From the NCBI RefSeq assembly GCF_002898515.1, contig NZ_PPFX01000035.1:12974-36973 (forward strand): a stretch of 24,000 bases of DNA, in the 5' to 3' direction. The stretch comes from Geothermobacter hydrogeniphilus. Lineage in GTDB: Bacteria > Desulfobacterota > Desulfuromonadia > Desulfuromonadales > Geothermobacteraceae. The notes beneath the pieces are model-generated. The model worked only from the letters and a program-made list of their open reading frames with translations, was not told the origin of the DNA and made no database searches. Made by a program: the position numbers and the translations under genes. Below are positions 6,201 to 23,992 of the stretch, piece by piece. How positions within the stretch are numbered: position 1 is the first letter of the stretch; every line of letters begins with the position of its first letter.

Positions 6201-6386
6201 GGGTTAATCCTCCTTTAACATCAACGCCTTACAGGGTTGGAGACGATTGGAACGAGCCGCAGGTTAGCACATCTGCAGGGCGGGGCAAAGGGGACAGGGG
6301 ATTGTGTCAAACAAGAAAAGCCCCCGGGCTCTGAACAAGCACCGGAGGCAGAGGATGAGGGAGTGCGATTTCTCCGGAGAGCAGTC

Positions 6387-7292
6387 TCAGTCCCCTGTCG
6401 GGGCGGAGCGCAGGGTTTCCCAATGCCGTCGGATGGCATCCCGTAACACCATCGCGGTCACGCCCGATTTGCGGAAACGACCCTGCATCGCCAGGTATTC
6501 CGCCAGTGCCAGGTCGGAGAAGTCAGGCTCGACATTGATCGTCATCTGCCGCCCGTCCCGGATCTCCAGAACCGGGAAAAGCCCGGAACGAACCGCCAGG
6601 CGGATCAGCTGGATCCCGTGAGAAGGTTCCGATTTCCAACCGGTGGGACAGGGGGAAAGGATGTGCAGGAAACGGAAGCCGCGCATCTCAAGCGCCAGCC
6701 GCAGCTTGCACAGGGTATCCTCGGGGTGAGCCAGGGAAACGCTCGCCGCGTAAGGAATGCGGTGCGCCGCCATGATCGCCAGGATCTCTTTCTTCACCTC
6801 CGGCTTGCCGGTCGGGGTACTGGTGGTCGCCGCCCCCAGCGGAGTGGCCGAGGAGCGCTGACCGCCGGTGTTGCCGTAGATTTCATTGTCGTAACAGATG
6901 TAGAGGATATCCTCGTTGCGCTCGGCGGCGGCCGAGAGCGCGCCCATGCCGATATCGTAGGTACCGCCGTCTCCGGCCCAGCAGATCACCCGGGTCTCTT
7001 CGCCGTTGAGGGCGGCGACCCGCGCCAGCCCGCCGGCGACTGCCGCGCTGCAGGCGAAGGTCGACATCACCACCGGAGCGCCGAAGGACGAAAAAGGATA
7101 ATTGCCGACCGCGACCGCGCCGCAGCAGGCCGGGACCACCAGCTGCACCGGTTGTCCGGCAATGGCACGACTGAGCATCTGCAGCGCGATCGACATGCCG
7201 CAACCGCCGCAGTTGGTGTTACCGGGACGCAGCAGCGGCTTTTTCCGGTCATGTTCGGTTTGTGCCATACCGTTCAGCGCCGGTTCGTTCAT
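6387..7292 (-). CDS. 2-oxoacid:ferredoxin oxidoreductase, beta (TPP-binding) subunit, Por/Vor type
   Basis: Contains GNTNCGGCGMSIA, GDGGTYDIGMGALSAAAERNEDILYICYDNEIYGNTGGQRSSATP and FLHILSPCPTGW. The ATG at 7290-7292 overlaps the alpha-subunit stop (ATGA). Confidence 0.88.
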   Translation of the reverse strand: MNEPALNGMAQTEHDRKKPLLRPGNTNCGGCGMSIALQMLSRAIAGQPVQLVVPACCGAVAVGNYPFSSFGAPVVMSTFACSAAVAGGLARVAALNGEETRVICWAGDGGTYDIGMGALSAAAERNEDILYICYDNEIYGNTGGQRSSATPLGAATTSTPTGKPEVKKEILAIMAAHRIPYAASVSLAHPEDTLCKLRLALEMRGFRFLHILSPCPTGWKSEPSHGIQLIRLAVRSGLFPVLEIRDGRQMTINVEPDFSDLALAEYLAMQGRFRKSGVTAMVLRDAIRRHWETLRSAPTGD

Positions 7293-11232: not shown

Positions 11233-12798
11233 TCATCCCATCCCGTACTTTTTCAGCTTTTTCAGCAGCCCGGTATGTGACAGCCCCAGCATTTTCGCCG
11301 CCTGGCGTTTGCTCGGTGCCAGTTGCAACGCCTCGGCGATCACCCGTCGTTCCAGTTGTTCGACCTGCCCGGCCAGAGATGTGCCGCCGGCTGCTGCCGC
11401 GACACCATCCGGTCGGCTGATCTCAAAACTGAAACGAATACTCTCGGCATCGATCTCCTCGCGACCGCTGAGTATCGCCGCCCGTTCGATGACGTTACGC
11501 AATTCGCGCACGTTGCCCGGCCAGTGATGACTCCTGAGCTTGGCCAGCGCCCCCGCGGTCAACTGCCGGGCACGCAGACCGAGACGAGCATTGACCTGGA
11601 AGAGAAAATGCCCGGCGAGCAGCGGGATGTCCTCAAGACGTTCGCGCAGAGGCGGGATATGCAGTGGAAAAAGGTTGACCCGGTAGTAGAGGTCTTCACG
11701 AAAACGGCCTTGCCTGACCAGCTGTTCGAGGTCACGGTTGGTGGCGGTGACCACCCGGGCGTTGACGGTAATCTCCTCGTTGCTGCCGATGCGTCGCAGC
11801 TTGCCGTCCTGGATCACCCTCAGCATTTTCGCCTGCAGGGCCGCCGGCATTTCGGCGATCTCATCGAGAAAGATGGTACCACTTTTCGCCGTCTCGAACA
11901 GTCCCGCGCGACCCTCCTTTTTTGCCCCCGAGAAAGCTCCGCCGACATAACCGAACAGTTCACTCTCCAGCAGGTTCTCCGGCAGGGCGGCGCAGTTGAC
12001 CGGGACAAACGGACCACGGCAGCCGCTGGCCACATGAATGGCGCTGGCAAACAGCTCCTTGCCGGTGCCGCTCTCACCGCGAATCGAGACGATGCCGTCA
12101 GTCGGCGCGACCTTCTCGGCGAAGGCGATCGCCTGCCGCAACGCTGGACTCTGGCCGACCATGTCATCAAAGGTCACCTGCGGTTCACCGGCCACCGCGC
12201 TGGCGACCTCGTGCAGACCCTTGATATCCCGCAGGACTTCGACCGCTCCGACGATGCGTCCTTTCGAGTCGCGAATCACCTGGCTGCTGGCCAAAAACCG
12301 GGCGCGGCGATTGCCGTGGGAAATGCTGCGCTTGACGTTGTGATAGGTCCGGCCGTCAAGACAGGAGAGCAGACTGGTGTCGGGAAAATCGAGATCCCGC
12401 AAGTTGCGGCCGACCAGCTCCCGGTCGGTGAGCCCGAGCATGCCGCGGGCCACCCGGTTGATGGTGGTCAGCTCTCCTTCCTCGTTGATCGACAGGATAC
12501 CGTCGCTGACACTGTCGAGGACCACCTTGAAACGTTTTTCCCGTCGTTCCTGCGGCATGGTACGGATCGAAACGACACTGAGAATATTGGGAATGGCCTC
12601 AAGGGAGGAGAGAATCGCCTCCTGGAGAGGCGATTGCGGACCGGTTTCGAGATCAAGATAGACGAAAGTCGCGCCGTCACGCTTCTCGACTTCCATGGCG
12701 AGAATGTTCAGGTCCTTGTCGGCCAGGACAACCGCGATCTGCGCCATCGCCCCGACCCGGTCGATGACCTGGAATTTCAGTTTTATATTGGCCGCCAT
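11233..12798 (-). CDS. Sigma54-dependent transcriptional activator, TyrR/PhhR-like architecture (ACT-PAS-AAA+-HTH)
   Basis: The N-terminus (VIDRVGAMAQIAVVLADKDLNILAMEVE...FVYLDLE...SIRTMPQERREK) parallels the E. coli TyrR ACT domain and its linker. PAS region: VLDSVSDGILSINEEG. AAA+ domain: GESGTGKE, ESELFGYVGGAFSGA (GAFTGA loop retained) and REDLYYRLN. C-terminal HTH: AAKMLGLSHTGLLKKLKKYG. Confidence 0.88.
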   Translation of the reverse strand: MAANIKLKFQVIDRVGAMAQIAVVLADKDLNILAMEVEKRDGATFVYLDLETGPQSPLQEAILSSLEAIPNILSVVSIRTMPQERREKRFKVVLDSVSDGILSINEEGELTTINRVARGMLGLTDRELVGRNLRDLDFPDTSLLSCLDGRTYHNVKRSISHGNRRARFLASSQVIRDSKGRIVGAVEVLRDIKGLHEVASAVAGEPQVTFDDMVGQSPALRQAIAFAEKVAPTDGIVSIRGESGTGKELFASAIHVASGCRGPFVPVNCAALPENLLESELFGYVGGAFSGAKKEGRAGLFETAKSGTIFLDEIAEMPAALQAKMLRVIQDGKLRRIGSNEEITVNARVVTATNRDLEQLVRQGRFREDLYYRVNLFPLHIPPLRERLEDIPLLAGHFLFQVNARLGLRARQLTAGALAKLRSHHWPGNVRELRNVIERAAILSGREEIDAESIRFSFEISRPDGVAAAAGGTSLAGQVEQLERRVIAEALQLAPSKRQAAKMLGLSHTGLLKKLKKYGMG

Positions 12799-12799
12799 G

Positions 12800-13390
12800 C
12801 TAGAAAATCAGCATCTCCTCGCGCGCATAGATCACCGCGAACAGGGTCGCCGGCCGGTCGCCATGGCAGGAAACGACATGCGGCAAGGTGGAATCATAGT
12901 AGATCGAATCGCCGGGATTGAGAATATCGGTGTGGCCGGAGAGGTTGACCTCGACCTGTCCTTCGAGAACGAACAGAATCTCCTCGCCAACATGCCGGTT
13001 CGGTTCCGGCTTGAAGCTCTCGTCGGGGGTGAGGGTTACCAGAAACGGTTCCATGTGACGGTTCTGTTTCTTGTAGCCGAGGGACTGGTAACTGTATCCG
13101 GCACTGGACCCGCCGCTGGAATCGAAACGGGTCACCATTTTACGGTCGTCACTACGGACAATGCAGAAGGGGGAATCGCCACTGTCACCGAACAGATCCC
13201 CGACGGAGACCTTGAGGACATTGGCCAGGCTGACGATATGCCCCAGGGGAGGTGTGACAGAACCCTCTTCAATCGCGTTCAGGGTGGTTTCCGGAAGATC
13301 GGTTTTCGCGGCGACATCGGCCATCGACATCCCCTGCCTGGTTCGCAGTTTCCTGATTTTCTCACCGATAGCGCCTTGTTGCTCAGACAT
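12800..13390 (-). CDS. XRE-family HTH transcriptional regulator with C-terminal cupin domain (copy 2)
   Basis: HTH (IGEKIRKLRTRQGMSMADVAAKTDLPETTLNAIEEG) and cupin (HVGEEILFVLEGQVEV...GDSIYYDSTLPH). Shares RHMEPF, GEE.L.VL.G and SIYYDS..PH with 5625..6200. The stop is 1 nt from the activator ATG. AAGGAGG RBS. Confidence 0.85.
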   Translation of the reverse strand: MSEQQGAIGEKIRKLRTRQGMSMADVAAKTDLPETTLNAIEEGSVTPPLGHIVSLANVLKVSVGDLFGDSGDSPFCIVRSDDRKMVTRFDSSGGSSAGYSYQSLGYKKQNRHMEPFLVTLTPDESFKPEPNRHVGEEILFVLEGQVEVNLSGHTDILNPGDSIYYDSTLPHVVSCHGDRPATLFAVIYAREEMLIF

Positions 13391-13453
13391 CGTTTGCCTC
13401 CTTGTGCAATGTTCCTGAGACCGTGAAGCACGGCCAGGGTTCAGGATTCCGGT

Positions 13454-14326
13454 TCAGGATGATACCGCCGTCTTGTCCATATCCAGATGAAGCACTTCCC
13501 GCAGGCGCCGGGCGATGGGACCGACCCGACCCTGGTTGATCATGAAGTCATCGACCTTGACCACCGGCATCACCTCCAGCGAGGTGGAGGTGATGAAGAC
13601 CTCGTCGGAAAATTTCAGGTCCTGCAGCCGGTATTCGCCGCGGATCACCCGCAGGTCAAGCTCTTCCTCGCACAGCCGGATGATGGTCGAGCGGGTCACT
13701 CCGGCGAGCAGCCCGGTCGCGACCGAGGGGGTAAAAACCCAGCGGTCCCGGGTCCAGAAAATGTTCGACGCCGCACCTTCGCAGATCTGCTCCCGGTTGT
13801 TGAGCATGACCACTTCAAAAGCGCCGGCGGCCCGGGCCTCCAGCTTGCCGAGCAGGCTGTTGAGATTGCTGATCGACTTGATCTTCGGATTGATCGCCTC
13901 CGGAGCGTTGCGACGGGTTTCGGCGACCCGCAGGACAATCCCGTCCCGGTAATGCGCTTCGTCGAACCCCTTGAACTCACGGGCGATGATCAGGCAGGTC
14001 AGATCCCCCGTCAATGCCCGCTGGAAACCGACCTGCCCCGGCCCGCGGGTGATGGTGATCCGGTAGTAGGCGTCGGTCAGCCGGTTGCGTCGGCGCAGTT
14101 CAAGCAGAATCTCTTCAAGCTGCGGGCGGCTGTAGGGGAGCTCATAACCCAGGGCTTCCGCGGACTGCTTGAGCCGCTGGTAATAGAGGGGGAACTGGTA
14201 GAGATGCGCCCCGATGGAACGGAAACTCTCGTAGATGCCGTCGCCGTAGAGAAATCCCTGGTCAAAAACCGAGATTTTCGCTCTGTCGCTGTCGACAAAC
14301 TGTCCGTTCAGGAATACCTGGCCCAT
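13454..14326 (-). CDS. Class IV (fold type IV) aminotransferase, branched-chain/D-amino-acid aminotransferase family
   Basis: Contains VFDQGFLYGDGIYESFR, ITITRGPG, AFEVVMLN, ICEGAASNIFW and LLAGVTRSTII. I chose ATG 14324-14326 (GAGGGG RBS). The track ORF begins at a TTG with a non-homologous 32-aa extension. Confidence 0.85.
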   Translation of the reverse strand: MGQVFLNGQFVDSDRAKISVFDQGFLYGDGIYESFRSIGAHLYQFPLYYQRLKQSAEALGYELPYSRPQLEEILLELRRRNRLTDAYYRITITRGPGQVGFQRALTGDLTCLIIAREFKGFDEAHYRDGIVLRVAETRRNAPEAINPKIKSISNLNSLLGKLEARAAGAFEVVMLNNREQICEGAASNIFWTRDRWVFTPSVATGLLAGVTRSTIIRLCEEELDLRVIRGEYRLQDLKFSDEVFITSTSLEVMPVVKVDDFMINQGRVGPIARRLREVLHLDMDKTAVSS

Positions 14327-14418
14327 GAGCCCCTCGCGAAAACGATAACTGGCGTGGATATCAAGTTCATTCCCGGGCGGGTCCGGAAAAATTCGTCGAA
14401 AATCATGGACAACCCGCC

Positions 14419-15234
14419 TCAATGCCCGCCGAACTCAGGCGGACGCTTTTCCAGAAAGGCATTGACCGCCTCGATGTGATCATCGGTCTGATGAGCCATG
14501 GCCTGGAACGTCGCGCAGAGATCGAGAAATTCCGGCAGAGCCATCGTCTGGCCGAGTTTCAGCAGCCGCTTGCTCAGCCGCAGCGCCTGCGGCGGCTGGG
14601 CGGCTATGCGGGCCGCCACCTCCCTGGCTCGCGGCAGCAGTTCCTGCTCATCGACCAGCTCAAGCAGCAGCCCCAGTTCCCGGGCCTCCTCCGCCTTGAT
14701 CAGCCGGCCGCTGAAAATCAGCTCGGCGGCCCGCTGGGCACCGACGATCCGCGGCAGGAACCAGGCGCCGCCGTCGCCGGGGACGATGCCGAGATTGAGA
14801 AAGGTCTCGCCGAGCAGGGATTTCGGCGTGCCGATACGCAGGTCGCACATGCAGGCGAGATCCATACCGGCCCCGATGGCCGGCCCGTTGACCGCGGCGA
14901 TGAGGGGAATCTCCGCTTTCTGCATCGCCAGCGGCAGCTGCTGAATACCACGCCGGTATTGATCCTGGATCTGCAGGGCCGAGCCGGAAAAGATCCCCTC
15001 GCGGTCGCGCATCTGCTTGATGTTGCCGCCGGCGGAGAAGGCCGACCCGGCACCGGTCAGAATCAGGACCGAAACCTCGGGGGTACGGTTGGCCCAGTCA
15101 AGGGTGGTCACGATATCCGTCACCAGGTCGGTGCCGGTCAGGGCATTGCGGACATCGTCGCGGGTGAAAGTCAATTCGGCGACGCGATCCCGCAGGGTCA
15201 GTCGCGCATCACTCAATTGCGGCAGTTCAATCAT
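14419..15234 (-). CDS. Enoyl-CoA hydratase/isomerase (crotonase) family protein
   Basis: Contains ILTGAGSAFSAGGNIK, IAAVNGPAIGAGMDLACMCDLRI and GIVPGDGGAWFLPRIVG. ATG at 15232-15234 with a GGAGAA RBS. Confidence 0.88.
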   Translation of the reverse strand: MIELPQLSDARLTLRDRVAELTFTRDDVRNALTGTDLVTDIVTTLDWANRTPEVSVLILTGAGSAFSAGGNIKQMRDREGIFSGSALQIQDQYRRGIQQLPLAMQKAEIPLIAAVNGPAIGAGMDLACMCDLRIGTPKSLLGETFLNLGIVPGDGGAWFLPRIVGAQRAAELIFSGRLIKAEEARELGLLLELVDEQELLPRAREVAARIAAQPPQALRLSKRLLKLGQTMALPEFLDLCATFQAMAHQTDDHIEAVNAFLEKRPPEFGGH

Positions 15235-15349
15235 CGGTCCATTCTCCGGGTCGAAAATTCGACGAATCCCAGCTTAGCAGAGTTGTTGCCCGGAGCCAAA
15301 TGGGCTATGGTAATTGTGGAGTTTACCCGTAGCCCATGGAGAATGAACA

Positions 15350-16054
15350 ATGCTGAATCAGAAACCGACCACCATCACCGCAACCCCGGCCGTCAGCTCC
15401 ACCACCAGCTTTCTGCCCTCGGTCTACGCCTGGATGACCGCCGGTCTGGCCCTGACCGCCCTGGCGGCCATGGTGACCCTGTCCAGCCAGGAACTGCTGA
15501 AGCTGATTTTCGGCAACAGAATGGTTTTTTATACCCTGATCTTCGGTGAACTGGGCCTGGTCATCGCCCTCTCCGCCGCCATCAACCGGATCAGTTCAAC
15601 AACGGCCACCCTGATGTTCCTGTTCTACTCGGCCCTCAGCGGGGTGACCTTCGCCTCGATTTTTCTGGTCTACACCAGCAGTTCCATCGCCAGCACCTTC
15701 TTCATCGCCTCCGGCACCTTCGCCGCCATGAGCATCTATGGCTACACCACTCGCCGCGACCTGACCGGCTGGGGGAGTTTCTTCTTCATGGGGCTGATCG
15801 GAGTTCTCATCGCCTCGGTGGTCAACATCTTCCTGCAGAGCACGATGATCTACTGGCTGGTCAGCTACATCGGCGTCTTCGTCTTCGTCGGCCTCACCGC
15901 CTACGACACCCAGAAGATCAAGCAGATCGGCGAGGCCGGTTTCGCCAACGAAGAGGGGCGCAAAAAGGCCGCCATCATCGGCGCGTTGCGGCTCTATCTC
16001 GACTTCATCAACCTGTTTTTGATGTTGCTGCGCATTCTCGGCAACCGCCGGTAA
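15350..16054 (+). CDS. BAX inhibitor-1/YccA family integral membrane protein
   Basis: Seven hydrophobic segments. Family motifs: FLPSVYAWMTAGL, FASIFLVYT, YGYTTRRDL, TAYDTQKIK and ALRLYLDFINLFLMLLRI. GGAGAA RBS. Confidence 0.85.
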   Translation: MLNQKPTTITATPAVSSTTSFLPSVYAWMTAGLALTALAAMVTLSSQELLKLIFGNRMVFYTLIFGELGLVIALSAAINRISSTTATLMFLFYSALSGVTFASIFLVYTSSSIASTFFIASGTFAAMSIYGYTTRRDLTGWGSFFFMGLIGVLIASVVNIFLQSTMIYWLVSYIGVFVFVGLTAYDTQKIKQIGEAGFANEEGRKKAAIIGALRLYLDFINLFLMLLRILGNRR

Positions 16055-16076
16055 ACAATCTCTTCCGCACCCCCCC

Positions 16077-17192
16077 TCATTCCTTCCACATCGCCAGCGC
16101 CTCGGCCGCCGTCACCTTGCTTAAGGGCTGGCGCGGTTGCGGTGGCCGGCCGTCGACCCAGGCGGGAAAGAGGGCCTCGGTGCGCCGCTCCCGCGGATAG
16201 ATCTGCACCAGGCCCCGCTGCCGGACATGGGGATGGTCGGGGACCTCGTGCTGTTCCAGAACCGGCTCGAAGCAGCAATCGACCTTGACGAACAGCGACC
16301 GCCAATGCGCCAGCGTCTCGCCGGCGAACAGGGCGGCGACCTCGCCGATCAGCTCGGTCTGCGGCAACGGCTGCCGCTGACGCCCAATCCAGTCCGGTCG
16401 CTCGACCGTCTCGCAGAAACGACGCCAGAACTTTTCCTCGATCGCCCCCAGGGCGACAAACCTGTCATCCGCAGTACGGTAGATCTGGTAGCAGGCCGCC
16501 CCGCCGGTCAGCAGATCCCGACCGCGTCCGAAGGTCTCGCCGGGACGGCCGGCGGCGGTCAGACCGAAGGACTGCCAGGAGAGAGCCATCTCGAACAGGC
16601 TGACATCGATGAACGCCCCACGACCGGTCCGACCGCGACGCAGCAGAGCGGCGAGAATGGTGGTGGCCGCCTGCTTGCCGGCGGCGTAATCACAGATCGG
16701 CGGAAAGGGAATGACTGGCGTCTGCGCGGTGCCGGTCAGGCTGAGCATGCCGCTCATGGCGAGATAGGTCAGGTCGTGCCCGGCGCGCTCGCGACAGGGG
16801 CCGCTCTGACCGAAGCCTGAAAGGGCGCAATGGACCAGGGAGGAGTTGAGCTGCTCAAGGCGCTCACGCCCGAAGCCGAGGCGCTCCAGCACGCCCGGCC
16901 GGTAGGATTCCAGCAGCACGTCGGCCACCCGCACCAGTTCGGCCAGGGACTCCCGCCCCACCGGCGTCTTGAGATCAAGCTCGGCCACCGCCTTACCGGC
17001 ATTGACCTGCTTGTAGAAGGGAGAAACCCCGTCACCGTCGGCCAGGATAAAAGACCGCATCGGGTCACCGGCCGGCGGCTCGACCTTCAGCACCTCGGCG
17101 CCGAGATCTCCGAGCAACTGGGTGGCGAAAGGACCGGGCAGGTACTGGCTGAGGTCGAGAACCCGGATCCCGGTGAGACAATCAGAAAGCAT
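16077..17192 (-). CDS. Family III CoA-transferase (CaiB/BaiF/Frc/racemase family)
   Basis: Contains GIRVLDLSQYLPGPFATQLLGDLGAEVLKVEPPAGDPMR, ESYRPGVLERLGFG and GHDLTYLAMSG. 371 aa. Confidence 0.88.
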   Translation of the reverse strand: MLSDCLTGIRVLDLSQYLPGPFATQLLGDLGAEVLKVEPPAGDPMRSFILADGDGVSPFYKQVNAGKAVAELDLKTPVGRESLAELVRVADVLLESYRPGVLERLGFGRERLEQLNSSLVHCALSGFGQSGPCRERAGHDLTYLAMSGMLSLTGTAQTPVIPFPPICDYAAGKQAATTILAALLRRGRTGRGAFIDVSLFEMALSWQSFGLTAAGRPGETFGRGRDLLTGGAACYQIYRTADDRFVALGAIEEKFWRRFCETVERPDWIGRQRQPLPQTELIGEVAALFAGETLAHWRSLFVKVDCCFEPVLEQHEVPDHPHVRQRGLVQIYPRERRTEALFPAWVDGRPPQPRQPLSKVTAAEALAMWKE

Positions 17193-17207
17193 CAGGCCGC
17201 CGCGAGC

Positions 17208-17765
17208 TCAGTCTTCAAGAGAGAACTCCCAGGCGCACCAGAACTCTTCCGGGTGGGCATCGGGCGGACAGGAGAGGCAGCGGGTCTGGATCCGCGGATC
17301 GATGGTGCGGGCGAACTCGCTGTACTCGACGATTCCCACCGACTTGCAGGGGAAGTCATCCAGCCCCCGGCGCTTGCGCGCCGACTGCACCCGGCAGTCG
17401 ACCATGCGGAACACCGCGCGGCTGTCACTGACCTCGATCGCCTGCTGCAGGTTGAGCCGCGCGTAGAGACGATGTTTGAGGCATTCAAGCAGCGCCGGGA
17501 TGCCGCCGCCCGGCTCGATCCCGAGCCGCGCCATGATCCGTTTGGCCTCGATGACGGTGAACTTCTCCCAGGCGGCCCGGTCGGCCTCGATCGCCACCTC
17601 CATGCCGTGGGTTTTCTCGATCGCCTGGAACCAGAGCCCGTCATGGGCCAGCCAGTTCTTGGCGTCGTCGATAATGATGGCGATCAGTTCCTCTTTGCTG
17701 AGCCGCTTGAGCAACTGGATGCCCTCATCGAAAGGTTCAATGGCGGTTTCGGTCTGGATGGACAT
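17208..17765 (-). CDS. Conserved hypothetical protein with Cys-rich C-terminus (about 185 aa)
   Basis: ATG at 17763-17765 with AAGGAG 7 nt upstream. Contains AKNWLAHDGLWFQAIE and the C-terminal VDC...FPC...RCLSCPPDAHPEEFWCAWEF. It resembles uncharacterised proteins of about 190 aa (possibly DUF6125 or ATC-hydrolase-like; the family call is from memory and unverified). Confidence 0.6.
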   Translation of the reverse strand: MSIQTETAIEPFDEGIQLLKRLSKEELIAIIIDDAKNWLAHDGLWFQAIEKTHGMEVAIEADRAAWEKFTVIEAKRIMARLGIEPGGGIPALLECLKHRLYARLNLQQAIEVSDSRAVFRMVDCRVQSARKRRGLDDFPCKSVGIVEYSEFARTIDPRIQTRCLSCPPDAHPEEFWCAWEFSLED

Positions 17766-17799
17766 GGGATCTCCTTTGGCAGAAAAGAAAAGCATTGGG

Positions 17800-17976
17800 C
17801 CGCCAAGACGCCAAGGACTCCAAGAAGGTCAAAACCTGCTTTACTGCAGAGACGGAGAGGAGCAGAGATCGGAGAGAAACCTGTTGGGGTTTATAAAACT
17901 CAAGCCAGAATTGGCTGAACTTTGCGTTCGCTCCCGCTCCGCGGCTCTCCGTTGAAAAGGTTTTCTTGGTGTCCTG
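17800..17976. repeat. Palindromic intergenic repeat, copy 1 (diverged); core 17841..17956
   Basis: Layout: CCAAGR-rich flank; TTACTGCAGAGacggagaggagcagagatcggagagaaa; AT-rich centre (TTTATAAAACTCAAGCC); pyrimidine arm ending CTCTCCGTTGAA; cttggtgtcctg flank. About 80% identical over 78 nt to the reverse complement of 19375..19452. Confidence 0.7.
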
Positions 17977-17989
17977 TTCACAAACATTC

Positions 17990-19225
17990 CTATTCAATCT
18001 CCCGCTGATCGTCAATCACCTTGCCGTCGTTGGGCAGGCTGCCGGGGGCGACGAATTCGACCTCGCCGCGCAGCTTGGTCAGCTCGCGGATCGAGTCGCG
18101 CAGGGCGGACGCCAATCCATCCGCGGCAACGGCGGATTCAGCCCGTAGCAGCATGTGGTCCTGGTCGTCCTGTCGGGTCACCACCAGCCGCCCGCGGCCG
18201 AGTTCCGGGTGGCGCTTGAGGATGGCGTCGACCTGCTGCGGATGCACGAACATGCCACGCACCTTGGTGGTCTGGTCGGCCCGCCCCAGCCAGCCCTTGA
18301 TGCGCAGATTGGTGCGGCCGCAGGGGCTGGCTCCCGGCAGGATGGCGGAAAGATCGCCGGTGGCGAAACGGATCAGCGGATAATCGGGATTGAGGCTGGT
18401 CACCACCACCTCGCCGACCTCCCCTGCCGGTACCGGGTCACCGCTGCCGGGGCGGACGATCTCGAGAACAATTCCCTCGTCGACGATCATCCCTTCCAGC
18501 GCCTCAGACTCGTAGGCGATCAGGCCGAGATCGGCGGTGGCGTAGCACTGGCGGACGCTGATGCCGCGCTGCGCCATCCCCTCACGCAGGCTCGGCGGCA
18601 GGTACTCACCGGAAACCAGCGCCGTCTCCAGGCACGACAGGTCGCTGCCGAGATCTGCAGCCTTGTCGAGAATCAGCTTCAGAAAGGACGGCGTACCAAC
18701 ATAGCCGCGCGGCCGGATGTGGCCCATCACCTGCACCTGCAGCTCGGTCTGGCCGACCCCGGCCGGCACCGTAGCACAGCCGAGCGCCCGGGCGCCGGAT
18801 TCGAACATCATCCCGGCCGGAGTGAAGTGGTAGGAGAAACAGTTGTGAATGATGTCGCCGGAACGGAACCCGGCGGCATACAGGGCGCGGGCAAAGCGCC
18901 AGAAATCGGGACGGGTCGAGCCGGGCTCGAAGATCGGCCCCGGGGAAGCGAAGATCTGGCACAACTCCGGCGGCTTAACCCCGGTCAGCCCGCCGAAGAC
19001 CGGCTGTCCCTGCTGACGCTCGATCAGCTCCGTCTTGCGCAGCAACGGCAGCTTCGCCAGCGCCGCGCGGTCGGTCACCTGCTGGCCGTCGACGCCCCGC
19101 AGCGTCTCGGCGAAGGCCGGGGCACTGCTTTTGGCGTGGTCGATCTGATCGGCCAGGCAGGCGAACAGGTCGGCTTCGCGCTGTTCGGGGGTGCGGGTTT
19201 CGAGGTTGTCGTAGTAGTCGGACAT
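17990..19225 (-). CDS. Phenylacetate-CoA ligase (PaaK)-like ANL-family protein with non-canonical P-loop
   Basis: Collinear with the PaaK family: FSYHFTPAGMMFESGA, VPAGVGQTELQ, GTPSFLKLIL, YATADLG, IRFATGDL and C-terminal NDGKVID. ASPGPIFEPG replaces the SSGTTGKP motif. I prefer the start at ATG 19223-19225 (GGAGA RBS) over 19237. Confidence 0.8.
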   Translation of the reverse strand: MSDYYDNLETRTPEQREADLFACLADQIDHAKSSAPAFAETLRGVDGQQVTDRAALAKLPLLRKTELIERQQGQPVFGGLTGVKPPELCQIFASPGPIFEPGSTRPDFWRFARALYAAGFRSGDIIHNCFSYHFTPAGMMFESGARALGCATVPAGVGQTELQVQVMGHIRPRGYVGTPSFLKLILDKAADLGSDLSCLETALVSGEYLPPSLREGMAQRGISVRQCYATADLGLIAYESEALEGMIVDEGIVLEIVRPGSGDPVPAGEVGEVVVTSLNPDYPLIRFATGDLSAILPGASPCGRTNLRIKGWLGRADQTTKVRGMFVHPQQVDAILKRHPELGRGRLVVTRQDDQDHMLLRAESAVAADGLASALRDSIRELTKLRGEVEFVAPGSLPNDGKVIDDQREIE

Positions 19226-19276
19226 GAGGGTCTCCATTGAAAAAATTCTTCAGGCCGCCCGCTCGCTCTGCTCGCT

Positions 19277-19452
19277 CAAGACGCCAGAAAAATCTATTTT
19301 AACGCAGAGGCACCGAGATGAAGAGACGCTGAGAAAAGCAAACTCTATTTACAAAACCCTTAAAATGATTTGTTTTTTCTCCCACCTCTGCTCCTCTCCG
19401 TCTCTGCGTTAAGAAGCCTTTGCCCCTCTTGGCGCCCTTGGCGTCCTGGCGG
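19277..19452. repeat. Palindromic intergenic repeat, copy 2 (archetype); core 19299..19412
   Basis: Perfect 11-bp terminal inverted repeats: TTAACGCAGAG (19299-19309) and CTCTGCGTTAA (19402-19412). Imperfectly complementary purine and pyrimidine arms of about 30 nt flank an AT-rich centre. CAAGACGCCAG / CTTGGCG..CTGGCGG flanks. Confidence 0.75.
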
Positions 19453-19463
19453 CAATCCGGCTT

Positions 19464-20300
<837 letters not shown>

Positions 20301-20382
20301 GGGGTTCTCCTTGGCAAGACAGAATGCAGGAGTCAGGAGTCAGCAGGGAGAACCTTCTGACCCCTCACTTCCAAATTCTGCC

Positions 20383-20405
20383 CGGCGGGGGCAAAGCCCC
20401 CGCCG
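20383..20405 (-). other. Very stable stem-loop in the SBP-livF spacer (attenuator or mRNA-stability hairpin candidate)
   Basis: CGGCGGGGGC-AAA-GCCCCCGCCG is a perfect 10-bp GC stem. On the minus strand it is followed only by a weak U-tract (GGCAGAATTTGG). Confidence 0.45.
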
Positions 20406-20551
20406 AACATAACCTCTAGTAGAACGGTTTCAGAAACGAGCAATTTTGCGCAAGGTCAAGGAAGCCGAGCATCTGCGCGGAGGCGTAGCAGCGCTACGCC
20501 GCACAAGCAGACGCACAGGCTGACGCAGAGATTGCGTAAAAGAGCCGTTTC

Positions 20552-21796
20552 CTACCAGCCCAGCCATTCCGGCCGGCGCGGCACCTCAACGGTCGCCAGC
20601 TTGGTCATCTTGAAATCGCCACCGTTGTACTTGCTGGTGTAGACATTGACCAGGTTCATGCCGCGATGATCCTCGGCGGTCCAGGTCGAGGGGGAGCAGA
20701 CCCCTTCAAGACCGGCCGGTACGAAGTTCTTCATCGATTCGAAGCCCTTCTTGATGTTCTCGCCGGTGATGGCACCCATGGCATCGGCCTTGAGCATCGC
20801 TTCCTTCATCAGGAAGGTGCCGCAGACGCCGCGGATGTAGTGCAGCATGCGCGGTTTCTTGCCGCTCGGGTCGGACATCTTGGAGACTTCGCGGAGGGTC
20901 TTCATGCCAGGCGCGTCGTCTTCCCAGGTCGCGGCGCCGACCACCCAGGCGATGCCGTCGCCGGCGGCACCGGTAGCCTTGATGGAGTTCTCGTCCCAGC
21001 CCCAGATATTGGTCAGGAACTGGGTCTTGACACCGACGGTGCTGCAGGACTTGAGCAGCGAGATGTTGGAACTGGAGGTGTTGGCGAGATAGGCGTAATC
21101 GGCCCCGGAGTCCTTCAGCGACAGGCACTGGGCCTTGGCGTCGGCCGGCTTCAGAGAATAAACGATGGAGGGCTCGACCTCAAAACCGAGTTCTTTGGCG
21201 TAGGCAGCGCAGGCGGCCTTGGGGGCGTTCGGATAGGGATGATTGTCGCCCATGTGGATGAACTTCGGCTTGCCCGATTTGCCTTTCGCCTTCCAGTCAT
21301 CGGCCGCCCACTGCACCAGACCGCGGCAGGCGTCGGAGTAGGAGGGGCCGTAAAAGAAGTTGTAGGGGGCGGCCGATTTGCTCTTCGGACCCTTGCCGGT
21401 CGGGTCGGTCAGGTGACCGGAGTAGGAGGCGGAAATGTAGGTGACCTTGTCCTTGGCGATGAACTTGACCAGCGCCTCGGTGTCAGCGGTGCCCCAGCCC
21501 TGGATGGCGACCGGCTTCAGCGATGACATCCACTTCTTGTAAGTCGCCACCGCGCGCGGCGCGTTGTAGGAATAATCGACAGTTTTGTACTTGATCTGCT
21601 TGCCGTTGATGCCGCCATGCTTGTTGATATAGGCGAGGGCGTCGTCAATCCCGTTGCCGAAGGGGATGCCGACCCCCGACGTCGGCCCGGTGTAGGCCGC
21701 GAGATGGCCGACCGGAATGGTGTCGGCGGCCAGGGTGCTGCCGGCGAACGCCAGTGAAGCAACCAGTAAACTGCCCAGAATGATCGATTTGCGCAT
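20552..21796 (-). CDS. LIV-family (Peripla_BP_6) ABC transporter periplasmic substrate-binding protein
   Basis: Signal peptide MRKSIILGSLLVASLAFAGSTLA|AD, then IPVGHLAAYTGPTSGVGIPFGNG..DALAYIN and other family features. ATG at 21794-21796 with a GGGAGGAAG RBS. Confidence 0.85.
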   Translation of the reverse strand: MRKSIILGSLLVASLAFAGSTLAADTIPVGHLAAYTGPTSGVGIPFGNGIDDALAYINKHGGINGKQIKYKTVDYSYNAPRAVATYKKWMSSLKPVAIQGWGTADTEALVKFIAKDKVTYISASYSGHLTDPTGKGPKSKSAAPYNFFYGPSYSDACRGLVQWAADDWKAKGKSGKPKFIHMGDNHPYPNAPKAACAAYAKELGFEVEPSIVYSLKPADAKAQCLSLKDSGADYAYLANTSSSNISLLKSCSTVGVKTQFLTNIWGWDENSIKATGAAGDGIAWVVGAATWEDDAPGMKTLREVSKMSDPSGKKPRMLHYIRGVCGTFLMKEAMLKADAMGAITGENIKKGFESMKNFVPAGLEGVCSPSTWTAEDHRGMNLVNVYTSKYNGGDFKMTKLATVEVPRRPEWLGW

Positions 21797-21874
21797 TGTC
21801 TTCCTCCCTTGAAGTGAACAGCTGGCCCGCAATGCGGGACGGTTAGGTGGAACGGTCGTGCACAGGCTCCCGAT

Positions 21875-22942
21875 TCAATATGAGAAGGGATAGAGCTTCC
21901 AGTAGGCCTTGATCATTTTCCAGCGATGAGCCAGGCCGTCCGGTTCGAAAATCAGAAAAAGAATGATCGCCAGGCCGATCGACATCTCCTTGATGTAGGC
22001 CAGCGCCTGCATCAGTCCCGACGAACCGTGGCCGAACAGTCCGACGCCGCCTTCCATCAGTTCCGGCAGCAGCACCATGAAGGCGGTTCCCATCAGGGTG
22101 CCCTGCACCGAGCCCATGCCGCCGATGATGATCATGCCGAGGAACTGGATCGACAGCAGCAGGGTGAACCCCTCGGCCGAAACGAAACCGAGATAATGAC
22201 CGAACAGGGCGCCGCCGACCCCGGCGTAAAAGGAGGAGATGCCGAAGGAGAGGATGCGGTACTTGGTCAGGTTGATGCCCATGATCTCGGCGGAAAGGTA
22301 ATGATCGCGCACGGCAATAAAGGCCCGGCCGTCACGGGTGCGCAGCAGGTTGGTACCGAACAGGAACATCAGCACGACATAGAACAGCACCACGTACCAG
22401 TAACGCTGGTCATTGTTGAACTCGAAACCGAAAATCGTGAACGGGTTCGCCATCGCCCCGTAGGCGCCGCCGGTGAACCAGTCGGCGCGGGAGAAGAAAT
22501 CCTCCAGAATGTACTGCGAGGCCAGGGTCGCGATCGCCAGGTAGAGTCCCTTGATGCGACCGGCCGGGATGCCGACGATCAGGCCGACCGCCATGGTCAT
22601 CGCTCCGGCCAGCGGGATGCAGAAGAAGACCGGCAACCCGGTGGCGTTGTTCAACCAGGCCGAGGCGAAGGCGCCGAAACCAAAGAAGGCGGCGTGACCG
22701 AGGGAAATCTGACCGGTGAAACCGACGACAATATTGAGCCCCAGAGCGGCGATGCCGTAATAACCGATCTGGATGCCGAGATTGAGGAAATAGGAATTCA
22801 GAAAAGTCGGTGCCAGCAGCAGAAAAATGACCGCCGCGATCGCCGTGCGACGCGCCAGCGGCGTCGGAAAGATGGTCGTATCCTGAATATAGGTGGAGCG
22901 GAACTCTCCACAATTCATACGTGCGTGGGCAGATGAAGACAT
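21875..22942 (-). CDS. livM: Branched-chain-amino-acid-type ABC transporter permease (LivM-like)
   Basis: Multi-TM protein with GLNIVVGFTGQISLGHAAFFGFGAF and GINLTKYRILSF. The start lies 3 nt after the livH stop. Confidence 0.85.
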   Translation of the reverse strand: MSSSAHARMNCGEFRSTYIQDTTIFPTPLARRTAIAAVIFLLLAPTFLNSYFLNLGIQIGYYGIAALGLNIVVGFTGQISLGHAAFFGFGAFASAWLNNATGLPVFFCIPLAGAMTMAVGLIVGIPAGRIKGLYLAIATLASQYILEDFFSRADWFTGGAYGAMANPFTIFGFEFNNDQRYWYVVLFYVVLMFLFGTNLLRTRDGRAFIAVRDHYLSAEIMGINLTKYRILSFGISSFYAGVGGALFGHYLGFVSAEGFTLLLSIQFLGMIIIGGMGSVQGTLMGTAFMVLLPELMEGGVGLFGHGSSGLMQALAYIKEMSIGLAIILFLIFEPDGLAHRWKMIKAYWKLYPFSY

Positions 22943-22945
22943 GAA

Positions 22946-23839
22946 TCAGATCCTCTCGATATCCTTGGTGCCGAACAGGCCGTAGGGCTTGATCATCAGG
23001 ATCACCACCAGGGCGTAGAAGGGGGCGATGGTGTACATGTTGCCGAGATGCAGCCACTGGCTGTCGACGAATTCCGCCAGGTTTTCCAGCACACCGATAA
23101 TCAGGCCGCCGACGATCGCACCGACGATCGAGTCGAGCCCGCCGAGAATAACCACCGGAAAAACCTTGATGCCGAAGAAGGAGAGCGCCGAAGAGACGCC
23201 GTTAACCATGCCGACCACCACTCCCGCCATGGCCGAAACCAGTGCCGAAATCGCCCAGGCGGCGGCGAATACCTTCTTCACCGAGATGCCGAGGCTCTGG
23301 GCCACCTGCTGATCGAAGGCGGTGGCGCGCATCGCCAGGCCGAGCCGGGAATACTTGAAGAAATAGTAGAAGCCGATCATGATCACCACCGAAATGACCA
23401 GGCTCATGATGTAGGCGGTCTGAATCTGCAAACCGAGCAGGTTGATCGACTCGGTCTCGAAAACCCGCGGGAAGGGCTTGGCGTAGACGCCGAAAATCCA
23501 GCCCATCAGCGACTGGAAGAACATCGACAGGCCGATGGTGACCATGATCACCGAGATGATCGGCTCGCCGATCAACGGTCTTAAAACCACCATCTGCAGC
23601 ACAATGCCGAAGATCACCATGAAGGCGAGGGTGATCGGAAAACCGAGCCAGAAGGGAAGATGGAACTTGACCAGCAGCGCCCAGCAGGTCCAGGCGCCGA
23701 TCAGCAGGAACTCGCCCTGGGCGAAGTTGACCACCTGGGTCGACTTGTAGATCAGCACAAAACACATCGCCACCACCCCGTAAAGGGTGCCGACAATCAG
23801 GCCGTTGACGATCAGCTGGGTAAGCAGTTCAAAATTCAT
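22946..23839 (-). CDS. livH: Branched-chain-amino-acid-type ABC transporter permease (LivH-like)
   Basis: Contains LIVNGLIVGTLYGVVAMCFVLIYKSTQVVNFAQGEF and RLGLAMRATAFDQQVAQSLGI. AAGGAGA RBS. Confidence 0.88.
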   Translation of the reverse strand: MNFELLTQLIVNGLIVGTLYGVVAMCFVLIYKSTQVVNFAQGEFLLIGAWTCWALLVKFHLPFWLGFPITLAFMVIFGIVLQMVVLRPLIGEPIISVIMVTIGLSMFFQSLMGWIFGVYAKPFPRVFETESINLLGLQIQTAYIMSLVISVVIMIGFYYFFKYSRLGLAMRATAFDQQVAQSLGISVKKVFAAAWAISALVSAMAGVVVGMVNGVSSALSFFGIKVFPVVILGGLDSIVGAIVGGLIIGVLENLAEFVDSQWLHLGNMYTIAPFYALVVILMIKPYGLFGTKDIERI

Positions 23840-23877
23840 GCTGTCTCCTTTGACATCCTTACGCCCTTAAACCTTTC

Positions 23878-23992
23878 TTAACGCAGAGTCGCAGAGAGGG
23901 AGAGCTCGTAGAGAAAAGCCGGTTACACTTTTGACTTTTTCAAAATCAAGCAGTCCCTCTCCGCCTCTGCCTCTCTTGCGCCTCAGCGTTAA
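23878..23992. repeat. Palindromic intergenic repeat, copy 3 (core); any outer flank is cut by the window edge
   Basis: TTAACGCAGAGtcgcagagagggagagctcgtagagaaaagc ... CTCAGCGTTAA. It has the same 115-bp layout and a similar AT-rich centre (TTTTTCAAAATCAAGC). It starts 39 bp upstream of the livH ATG. Confidence 0.75.

Follow-up and report, generated by a model that had tools for sequence, protein, structure and literature searches.

Small intergenic repeats such as REP, BIME, and ERIC sequences and miniature inverted-repeat transposable elements (MITEs) shape operon expression, genome rearrangement, and insertion-sequence targeting, and the known small-repeat families are each confined to a narrow bacterial group. 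REP, ERIC, and Correia elements have documented effects on mRNA stability and processing, with the inverted-repeat hairpins of Correia and ERIC elements either being cut by RNase III or altering transcript stability, and REPs are targeted by IS110-type elements. Here, we describe a family of foldback repeats from a stretch of 24,000 nucleotides of Geothermobacter hydrogeniphilus (contig NZ_PPFX01000035.1; referred to below as the window), in which three palindromic cores built from arrays of short tandem units lie in intergenic gaps of a liv/PaaK gene string. Near-identical unit arrays with the same terminus are present in many bacterial phyla, and the elements turn over quickly inside an otherwise conserved operon.

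The closest precedent comes from the order to which the window itself belongs, the Desulfuromonadales. In Geobacter metallireducens, "predicted global regulator binding sites" that occur as opposite-strand pairs are listed by Aklujkar et al. (2009; BMC Microbiol 9:109; PMC2700814), among them class 1, (GTTGCTYN)x4, with 24 pairs; class 2, (TCTCCGTS[Y])x3, with 21 pairs; and class 3, (MTYCTGA)x5, with 8 pairs. Those authors proposed binding of IHF/HU, without experiments, and IS110-family insertions likewise occur at a fixed distance from class 1 sites (PMC2700814). The window elements share with class 2 the arrangement as opposite-strand intergenic pairs at variable distance, with 3 to 5 tandem 7- to 9-nt repeats per site. 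At the level of the published consensus, the GGAGAG/GCAGAG unit of the window arms is TCTCCGTS[Y] read on the opposite strand. The consensus occurs literally in the right arm of copy 2 (CTCCTCTCCGTCTCTGCG, which contains TCTCCGTC), and its reverse complement is found in the left arm of copy 1 (ACGGAGAGGAGCAGAG). Class 3 units (TTCTGAATTCTGACTCC, from the class 3 alignment) match a fourth module of the window and the module in gap C of a metagenomic relative (L122). The elements of the window are new members of a kind already listed in Geobacter, where the genome paper for G. bemidjiensis also reports multicopy sequences in 12% of intergenic regions. The class 2 sites are presented as supplementary alignments of one genome, and for them a TTAAC terminus, hairpin statistics, turnover, or a distribution wider than Geobacter is not reported.

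Whether the family is already catalogued, a question raised in the first-pass annotation, thus has a divided answer: paired sites of this kind are listed in G. metallireducens as predicted regulator binding sites, and we found no described repeat family or Rfam entry. At the gathering score, Rfam gave no matches in the window or in 15 canonical loci of the wider family, and a permissive scan of positions 17750 to 19500 returned only chance-level matches to miRNA-like hairpins. Our literature searches found no paper describing the cross-phylum family or the TTAAC cap and no study of its function; queries with the literal sequence returned only unrelated eukaryotic primers, and searches by concept led to a survey of GTAG/CGTC-tagged REPs and to work on eukaryotic foldback elements. 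As far as we found, the cross-phylum extent, the terminal cap, the superfamily of unit types, and the negative RNA tests are new.

All three palindromic cores proposed from the first inspection of the sequence were confirmed by direct reading of the window (Table 1). On either strand, every core folds into a single long imperfect hairpin of -39 to -51 kcal/mol, with z-scores of -2.8 to -6.7 relative to dinucleotide shuffles. The arms are 30- to 40-nt arrays of about four 8-nt units, each consisting of a GCAGAG or GGAGAG core and 2 spacer bases, and the inverted arrays are 35 to 50 nt apart in all three copies. A loose detector run over the whole window found arrays of at least three units in five of the six arms and only one other match, a degenerate one in the gap at 6275 to 6297 (GCAGGGCGGGGCAAAGGGGACAG), compared with a chance level of 0.8 arrays per window in mononucleotide shuffles. 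The terminus TTAACGCAGAG is exact at 19299 (plus strand), 19402 (minus strand), and 23878 (plus strand) and has one mismatch at 23982 (minus strand); copy 1 is a degenerate member, because it has two mismatches at either end (TTACTGCAGAG at 17841 and TCAACGGAGAG on the minus strand at 17945). The right arm of copy 2 is an 87% complementary match to the left arm of copy 1 (I2). The center is AT-rich, as first described, but its sequence is poorly conserved among the three copies.

The modules outside the cores are more complex than the 175-bp extended dyad that had been proposed for copies 1 and 2. The CGCCAAGR arrays are real, but each copy has a strong array on one side only, with ~1.5 units left on the other, so that the dyad is only partial; the best outer match is between the left flank of copy 1 and the right flank of copy 2 (I1; 46 nt, 80%). 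These two copies are also not alone in having outer arrays, as copy 3 is flanked by an array of CCTTNNNN, which is probably half of another outer module with its partner beyond the end of the window. The copy 1 core is nested in an older module of the CCAAGG type.

The first-pass annotation suggested a repeat family, and further copies are plentiful. We scanned one representative genome per species with the pattern TTAACGCAGAGNNNNNGAGNNGNAGAG, which has 20 fixed bases, and the arm pattern TTAAC(GCAGAGNC)n was found in at least 118 genome stretches from ~15 phyla; because of the 20 fixed bases, ~1 chance match is expected in 1.2e12 bases by our own arithmetic. A tally of record titles among the matches listed gives Chloroflexota (28 stretches), Verrucomicrobiota (19), Desulfuromonadales with other "delta" lineages (18), Kiritimatiellia (13), Acidobacteriota (6), Lentisphaerota (5), beta/gamma-type proteobacteria (4), Chlamydiota, Planctomycetota, Bacteroidota, and Ignavibacteria (3 each), Gemmatimonadota and Poribacteria (2 each), Calditrichota, Hydrogenedentota, and Armatimonadota (1 each), a doubtful Lachnospira record (1), and 5 unclassified stretches. 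The hosts in this set range from 34 to 69% G+C and include the isolates Trichlorobacter thiogenes, a Herpetosiphon sp., and "Candidatus Chloroploca asiatica." We note that the Lachnospira record (L091, labeled Lachnospira hominis) is the only Firmicutes-labeled match listed and that it also carries a TTAACCACGGAT-type array; its label may be a binning or contamination error and not a true presence in the Firmicutes.

The canonical form of the family is (T)TTAAC(GCAGAGRC)2-6, a variable center, and (GYCTCTGC)2-6GTTAA(A). Among the matches listed, a strict detector recognizes 52 paired elements, with a median length of 128 nt and an inter-array space of 5 to 282 nt, and 63 anchors without a recognizable partner, although several of these "solo" anchors are seen by eye to have a degenerate partner or a partner made of another unit. 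Position -1 is T in 82% of copies, giving the conserved terminus TTTAAC, and TTAA therefore looks like part of the terminus of the element itself; partner-arm termini that are not forced by the pattern are mostly CTCTGCGTT(A/G)A. The arrangement with TTAAC facing outward is about four times more common than the reverse (85 versus 21). Arm similarity at free positions is higher within genomes than between them (0.597 versus 0.500; permutation p<0.0005), which shows intragenomic copying of arms. Judged by their unit sequence, the arrays are free of stop codons on both strands and are thus open to read-through by gene callers; 10 paired elements and 18 solo arrays lie inside open reading frames (ORFs) of our own calling. 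In metagenome assemblies, such arrays may be annotated as short, repetitive "hypothetical proteins."

A wider set of unit types was recovered from metagenomes with a pattern of TTAACC followed by three degenerate CRCRRAK units at 9-nt spacing. At least 120 metagenome stretches match, with at least 13 of the 16 unit types that the pattern allows, including CACGAAG, CGCAGAG, CACAGAG, CACAAAG, CACGGAT, CGCAAAG, and CGCAGAT, and several unit types occur side by side on single contigs (L145, L150, and L178). Among the matches listed, 56 of 124 arrays are internally homogeneous (1.5 expected), and an inverted partner is found within 400 nt downstream of 61 of the 124 anchors and upstream of 13 of ~110 (~12%), an excess which shows that the TTAAC-outward polarity is real. 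The two arms of an element share their unit type, with a core identity of 0.81 within elements and 0.49 between them (p<0.0002), and spacer identity is likewise higher within elements (0.41 versus 0.31; p=0.0006). The partner terminus is exactly TTAACC in just 25% of the 9-nt superfamily elements listed, and the TTAACC cap is a consensus rather than a strict tag. A long pure heptamer array, (TTAACCA)n, was also seen in an Ignavibacteria contig (L066, ~6400 to 6500; minus-strand positions 1518 to 1630) and recalls the STRR heptamer repeats of cyanobacteria.

Comparison of the syntenic loci of G. hydrogeniphilus (L119), G. ehrlichii (L120), and the metagenomic relative (L122; 82%) shows that these elements are replaced quickly. 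Gene order is identical in the window and all three relatives, and a homology search finds the PaaK-like protein of the window to be 97% identical to that of L119. A hairpin with arms of tandem 7- to 9-nt units occupies each of the four larger gaps between cistrons (the one upstream of livH and the binding-protein/ATPase, ATPase/PaaK, and PaaK/DUF6125 gaps) in every one of the four genomes, but the unit varies by genome and by gap, and GCAGAG, CCAAGG, GTGCCGGG, GGCTAAAG, CAGAAT/CAGGAGT, and CACTGAGG are all represented. Between the window and L119, the outer CCAAGG arrays of two gaps (B, the ATPase/PaaK gap, and C) are kept, whereas the content between them is entirely different, which indicates that the elements are nested mosaics with a turnover much faster than that of the flanking genes. 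In gap B, the window has an inner GCAGAG core that L119 lacks, a presence/absence difference of the MITE type between related genomes; the comparison of filled and empty sites that had been proposed as a check gave no clean empty site. The whole gap upstream of livH is also replaced, and because its ribosome-binding region is wholly different in this 97% relative, element turnover rewrites translation-initiation regions of a conserved operon. The fourth module of the window, in the binding-protein/ATPase gap, is kept in all three relatives and is the one that matches the class 3 sites of G. metallireducens. Within operons that are otherwise conserved, the elements are signposts to hot spots where intergenic DNA changes rapidly. 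We also note that the ribosome-binding regions of livH (23840 to 23877) and of the PaaK-like gene (19237 to 19300) lie in or beside remnants of unit arrays.

Two elements in one Kiritimatiellia metagenome-assembled genome (L021, 2128 to 2310, and L024, 6540 to 6739) have a near-identical 36-nt arm, TTAACGCAGAGTCGCAGAGACGCAGAGTACGCAGAG, and centers of ~120 nt that are completely unrelated and hold other small repeats. Either the arms may be propagated independently of the center, or the loops may be insertion hot spots.

A selected hairpin acting in mRNA stability or attenuation had been offered as one explanation. The cores occupy three gaps of a minus-strand, co-directional gene string, as first described, and lying between co-directional genes they should be co-transcribed with them, on the operon structure that we infer; by folding, each core can form an imperfect hairpin of ~35 to 45 bp in the liv/PaaK mRNA. 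For the context tests, genes were called by GC3 minus GC1, a criterion that told true genes and shadow ORFs apart without error in the window; neither G at codon position 1 nor amino acid composition could do so. For a set of co-directional contexts together with 16 Geothermobacter modules of known orientation, the sense strand folds more stably than the antisense strand in 19 cases and less stably in 19 (Wilcoxon p=0.87). Solo arrays have the purine strand in sense orientation in 12 cases and in antisense in 13, and the paired elements are in 23 co-directional, 8 convergent, and 5 divergent contexts, a split that by our estimate, made without a computed baseline, roughly matches intergenic DNA in general. 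Arm complementarity at the variable positions of the GCAGAG family is no better with an element's own arm (0.432) than with arms of unrelated elements (0.429; p=0.47). In a gapped version of this test the true partner has a median rank of 0.48, with 3 of 55 below 0.05, and the three copies of the window pair worse with their own arms than with foreign ones. These four tests and the within-genome similarity of arms together show that the unit sequence and the inverted-array layout are conserved and that base pairing on the transcript is not. The proposal of a selected hairpin is therefore not upheld, as we see no sense-strand advantage, no arm covariation in the GCAGAG family, and no strand or context bias.

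The suggestion of a small structured RNA fares no better, with no Rfam match, promoter-like site, or terminator shape. Promoter and terminator scanning found no promoter-like sites and no terminator at the element boundaries, and its sole terminator match within the elements falls on a small stem inside copy 1. Family flanks are T-rich on the 5' side (from the T at position -1) and, in copies inspected by eye, A-rich on the 3' side, which is the opposite of an intrinsic terminator. Mimicry of Shine-Dalgarno or anti-Shine-Dalgarno sequences was considered and dropped, as many unit types (CACGGAT, CACGAAT, and CGCAGAT) are not Shine-Dalgarno-like, and resemblances to 16S helix 45, boxA, CIRCE, and a XerD half-site, which extend over just 6 to 8 bases, were set aside. 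Avoidance of Rho sites as the cause of the purine-arm-first polarity is speculation only, because outward-facing termini of inverted repeats explain the polarity equally well.

In genomic behavior, the nearest analogues are REP/BIME and Correia/ERIC elements. Like the REPs, BIMEs, and REPINs of Enterobacteria, Pseudomonas, and others, the window elements are abundant intergenic palindromes, often co-transcribed, that form inverted pairs and mosaic clusters (PMC3733652). They also resemble REPs in having a short conserved tag at one terminus and a body that varies between species, and secondary effects on mRNA stability are known for REPs. In contrast, a REP is a single palindrome of 20 to 40 nt and not a tandem-octamer array, its tag is GTAG or CGTC and not (T)TTAAC/GTTAA(A), and REPs are species specific, whereas the GCAGAG unit is near-identical across phyla; nor is a RAYT gene (for a Y1 HUH transposase) linked to the window elements, either in these 24 kb of genome or at the 118 loci. 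The resemblance to MITEs lies in the small size, the terminal inverted repeats, and the lack of coding capacity. Correia elements of Neisseria and enterobacterial ERIC/IRU elements are also ~100 to 150 bp, noncoding, and dispersed, with terminal inverted repeats in transcribed intergenic DNA. They differ in being conserved over their whole length (~127 bp including the core for ERIC), whereas the centers here are not conserved, in having inverted repeats that are not internally repetitive, and in a host range of a genus or family as opposed to many phyla; a TA duplication is proven for Correia elements but not demonstrated for the TTAAC-capped ones. In architecture, the nearest analogues are the eukaryotic Foldback elements (Drosophila FB, Galileo, and Tetris), which have long inverted repeats of short tandem repeats around a variable center and in which the arrays expand and contract (PMC3573991 and PMC4079207). 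Foldback elements are kilobase sized and linked to P-superfamily or other known transposases, and we imply no homology.

Among the options first put forward, a MITE/BIME-like reading fits best, and we hold it with evenly divided confidence that the elements are foldback repeats of this type, with internally repetitive terminal inverted repeats and with mRNA hairpins as a by-product. The elements would spread as selfish, nonautonomous DNA in the manner of MITEs and BIMEs, with a putative enzyme recognizing the repetitive ends, and would land in intergenic gaps, often within earlier elements, to give the nested arrangement that we observe. Slippage or gene conversion would then homogenize the arrays, whose uniformity is evident, and would raise or lower their number of units. 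If the hairpins act as those of REP, ERIC, and Correia elements do, they would stop 3' exonucleases or serve as RNase III cleavage sites and thereby alter relative cistron stability; in our view, any such effect would be a side effect and not the reason for the existence of the elements.

Several results weigh against this reading. TTAA or TA could be a target-site duplication, but none was demonstrable, and between the window and its 97% relative there is no clean empty site or insertion boundary, whole segments being replaced. When 770 predicted proteins encoded at the 118 loci were compared all against all, which is a weak test for a trans-acting gene, no recurrent linked gene emerged, transposase or other, and the window contains no transposase. 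Neither viral contigs, where matches are very rare (three), nor plasmids, where BLAST of one element against a plasmid collection gave three short partial matches and no full-length match, point to a vehicle for transfer between phyla. Copies of a MITE master element do not usually differ in their centers, yet here the centers are unconserved within a single genome. Neutral selfish spread by itself does not readily account for a core unit that is near-identical across very distant phyla and in a 34% G+C host; a conserved binding partner could be responsible instead. A hairpin may also be needed at the four operon gaps, all of which are filled in all four genomes. Because of the near-identical core, the unconserved centers, and the full occupancy of the gaps, models with a binding partner or an RNA function are still alive, each as a minority view.

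In the first of these models, which we regard as improbable, a nucleoid-associated or global regulatory protein binds the arrays, each arm being a row of its sites, and the pairs organize DNA or regulate neighboring genes, with the hairpin incidental. It agrees with a conserved unit core and free spacer bases, with GCAGAG-family arms that do not covary, with independence from the direction of transcription, and with retention of the core across phyla and in hosts of 34 to 69% G+C, and combinations of IHF and HU were already proposed for like sites in G. metallireducens (PMC2700814). However, the many unit types per genome, with some mixed arrays, would call for many paralogous proteins or a very loose specificity, and unit spacings of 8, 9, or 10 nt are out of phase with the DNA helix. 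Orthologous gaps of close relatives hold unrelated units, unlike a conserved regulon, all intergenic contexts are used, convergent gaps included, and no candidate protein recurs nearby at the 118 loci. The RNA model, in which the hairpin is a selected REP/ERIC-like element serving as a stabilizer, a processing site for RNase III or RNase E, or a cistron uncoupler, seems to us just as doubtful. The hairpins are strong and significant relative to shuffles, and their presence in all four gaps of all four genomes with differing sequences looks like conservation of structure; the sharing of unit types by the superfamily arms of one element points the same way, but a mobile element should have inverted repeats that match in unit type just as well. 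Folding does not favor the transcribed strand (19:19), the GCAGAG-family arms show no compensatory pattern, many half-elements are solo with no strand preference, and copies are also found in convergent and divergent gaps.

Two further explanations have little to recommend them. The attC R-box consensus is RYYYAAC/GTTRRRY, and the elements might be attC-like sites, which an integron-type tyrosine recombinase would recognize in the folded single strand by structure and not by sequence. The termini TTTAAC...GTTAAA fit the pyrimidine/purine pattern of this consensus, the many sequence types have one architecture, and the size range overlaps that of attC sites. But the first R of the R-box is not matched and the partner termini are degenerate (25% exact in the 9-nt superfamily), an L-box or extrahelical-base pattern was not identified, the elements are scattered singly among housekeeping genes, and no integrase is present in the window or recurrent near the 118 loci. 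Moreover, the flanked genes are not cassettes, because their order is kept in four genomes while the hairpins differ. We rejected the attC reading on genomic context, even though the termini fit, and consider it very improbable. That the three copies are a local duplication or a chance similarity of low-complexity sequence is scarcely credible: they do lie within 6 kb and have similar arms, but at least 118 matches in other genomes against ~1 expected refute it, elements are absent or replaced at the same sites in close relatives, and shuffles give 0.8 arrays per window.

A broader proposition goes beyond the MITE/BIME-like reading of the window copies. It is conceivable, although we would not rate it as likely, that the elements belong to a pan-bacterial superfamily (no fewer than 15 phyla and 13 unit types, with many types per genome) that is made, moved, or read by a dedicated and so far unrecognized machinery, of which the Geothermobacter copies would be one local outcrop. 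Candidates would be an enzyme that reads a short terminal tag and a folded array and not the sequence of the units, comparable to RAYT with REPs or IntI with attC, or a conserved nucleic acid-binding protein with an 8- to 9-nt register. Nearly the same 7-base core and terminus occur in Chloroflexota, the Planctomycetes-Verrucomicrobia-Chlamydiae (PVC) group, Acidobacteriota, Bacteroidota, Desulfuromonadales, and others, and a common machinery, if true, would be a new mobile-element or recognition system with a very wide host range.

The gene string that carries the cores (11233 to 23839) consists of metabolic and transport genes on the minus strand, with a Bax1-I gene at 15350 to 16054 as the sole plus-strand exception. 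Copy 3 is upstream of livH, copy 2 is in the gap between the ABC ATPase and PaaK-like genes, and copy 1 is in the PaaK-like/DUF6125 gap; a gene is indeed present where a Cys-rich ORF had been noted beside copy 1, but it codes for the DUF6125 protein, and it is followed in minus-strand order by a family III CoA-transferase gene and further genes. Domain annotation of the window genes identified no transposase domain or integrase in these 24 kb.

Table 1. Repeat modules and neighboring genes in the 24-kb window
Feature	Position	Location or strand	Description
Copy 1 core	17841-17956	PaaK-like/DUF6125 gap	Termini TTACTGCAGAG / CTCTCCGTTGA; degenerate foldback element
Copy 1 arms	17846-17876 and 17920-17950		GCAGAG/GGAGAG octamer arrays
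Copy 2 core	19299-19412	ABC ATPase (livF-like)/PaaK-like gap	Exact TTAACGCAGAG termini
Copy 3 core	23878-23992	Upstream of livH	Termini TTAACGCAGAG / CTCAGCGTTAA
Outer CGCCAAGR octamer array	17799-17826	Left of copy 1	Right-side remnant CTTGGTGTCCTG, ~17965-17976
Outer CCTTGGCG octamer array, CCAAGG-type module	19422-19453	Right of copy 2	Degenerate partner at ~19254-19292
CCTTNNNN (TAAGG-type) array	23840-23877	Between copy 3 and livH start	Read directly; includes livH ribosome-binding region
Fourth foldback module	20314-20388	Binding-protein/ATPase gap	Heptamers CAGGAGT/CAGAAT, a different unit family
livH-like permease	22946-23839	Minus	
livM-like permease	21875-22942	Minus	
Periplasmic binding protein	20552-21832	Minus	
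ABC ATPase (livF-like)	19464-20300	Minus	
PaaK-like adenylating enzyme	17990-19237	Minus	
DUF6125 protein	17208-17795	Minus	

The intergenic DNA of this locus contains other small repeats and signals. The binding-protein/ATPase gap has a hairpin element of ~119 nt (20433 to 20551) with a central palindrome, GGCGTAGCAGCGCTACGCC, at ~20482 to 20500, which belongs to a separate repeat family with the central palindrome GRCGTAGCGCTGCTACGCC; this palindrome family is listed for G. metallireducens, G. sulfurreducens, and Desulfotalea in Fig. S1 of Aklujkar et al. (2009; PMC2700814). Further copies of the GRCGTAGCGCTGCTACGCC family are in L119 at 16666 to 16901 (two copies, with none in the matching window gap at 12799), in the ATPase/PaaK gap of L120, and in L122 at 16421 to 17023. 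A G+C-rich stem-loop, GGCGGGGGC / GCCCCCGCC (20376 to 20412), lies just upstream of the class 3-like module and is kept in the window, L119, and L122; it has a terminator-like shape but no U-run after it on the sense strand. L119 also has an insert of ~165 nt at 13238 to 13423, between the convergent CoA-transferase and Bax1-I genes, where the window has 22 nt (16055 to 16076). This insert has the inverted ends GGGCTCAGATTTTCCATT ... AATGGAAAATCTGACCC and is an insertion/absence difference for another small repeat. The livM/binding-protein gap is the one operon gap that lacks a tandem-unit hairpin in each of the four genomes (21833 to 21874 in the window, 7485 to 7562 in L119, 7406 to 7491 in L120, and 7367 to 7448 in L122). 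It has a conserved short motif, GTCCCGC...GCGGGCC, followed by AAGGGAGGAA and the start codon, and may be a genuine conserved regulatory or translational signal.

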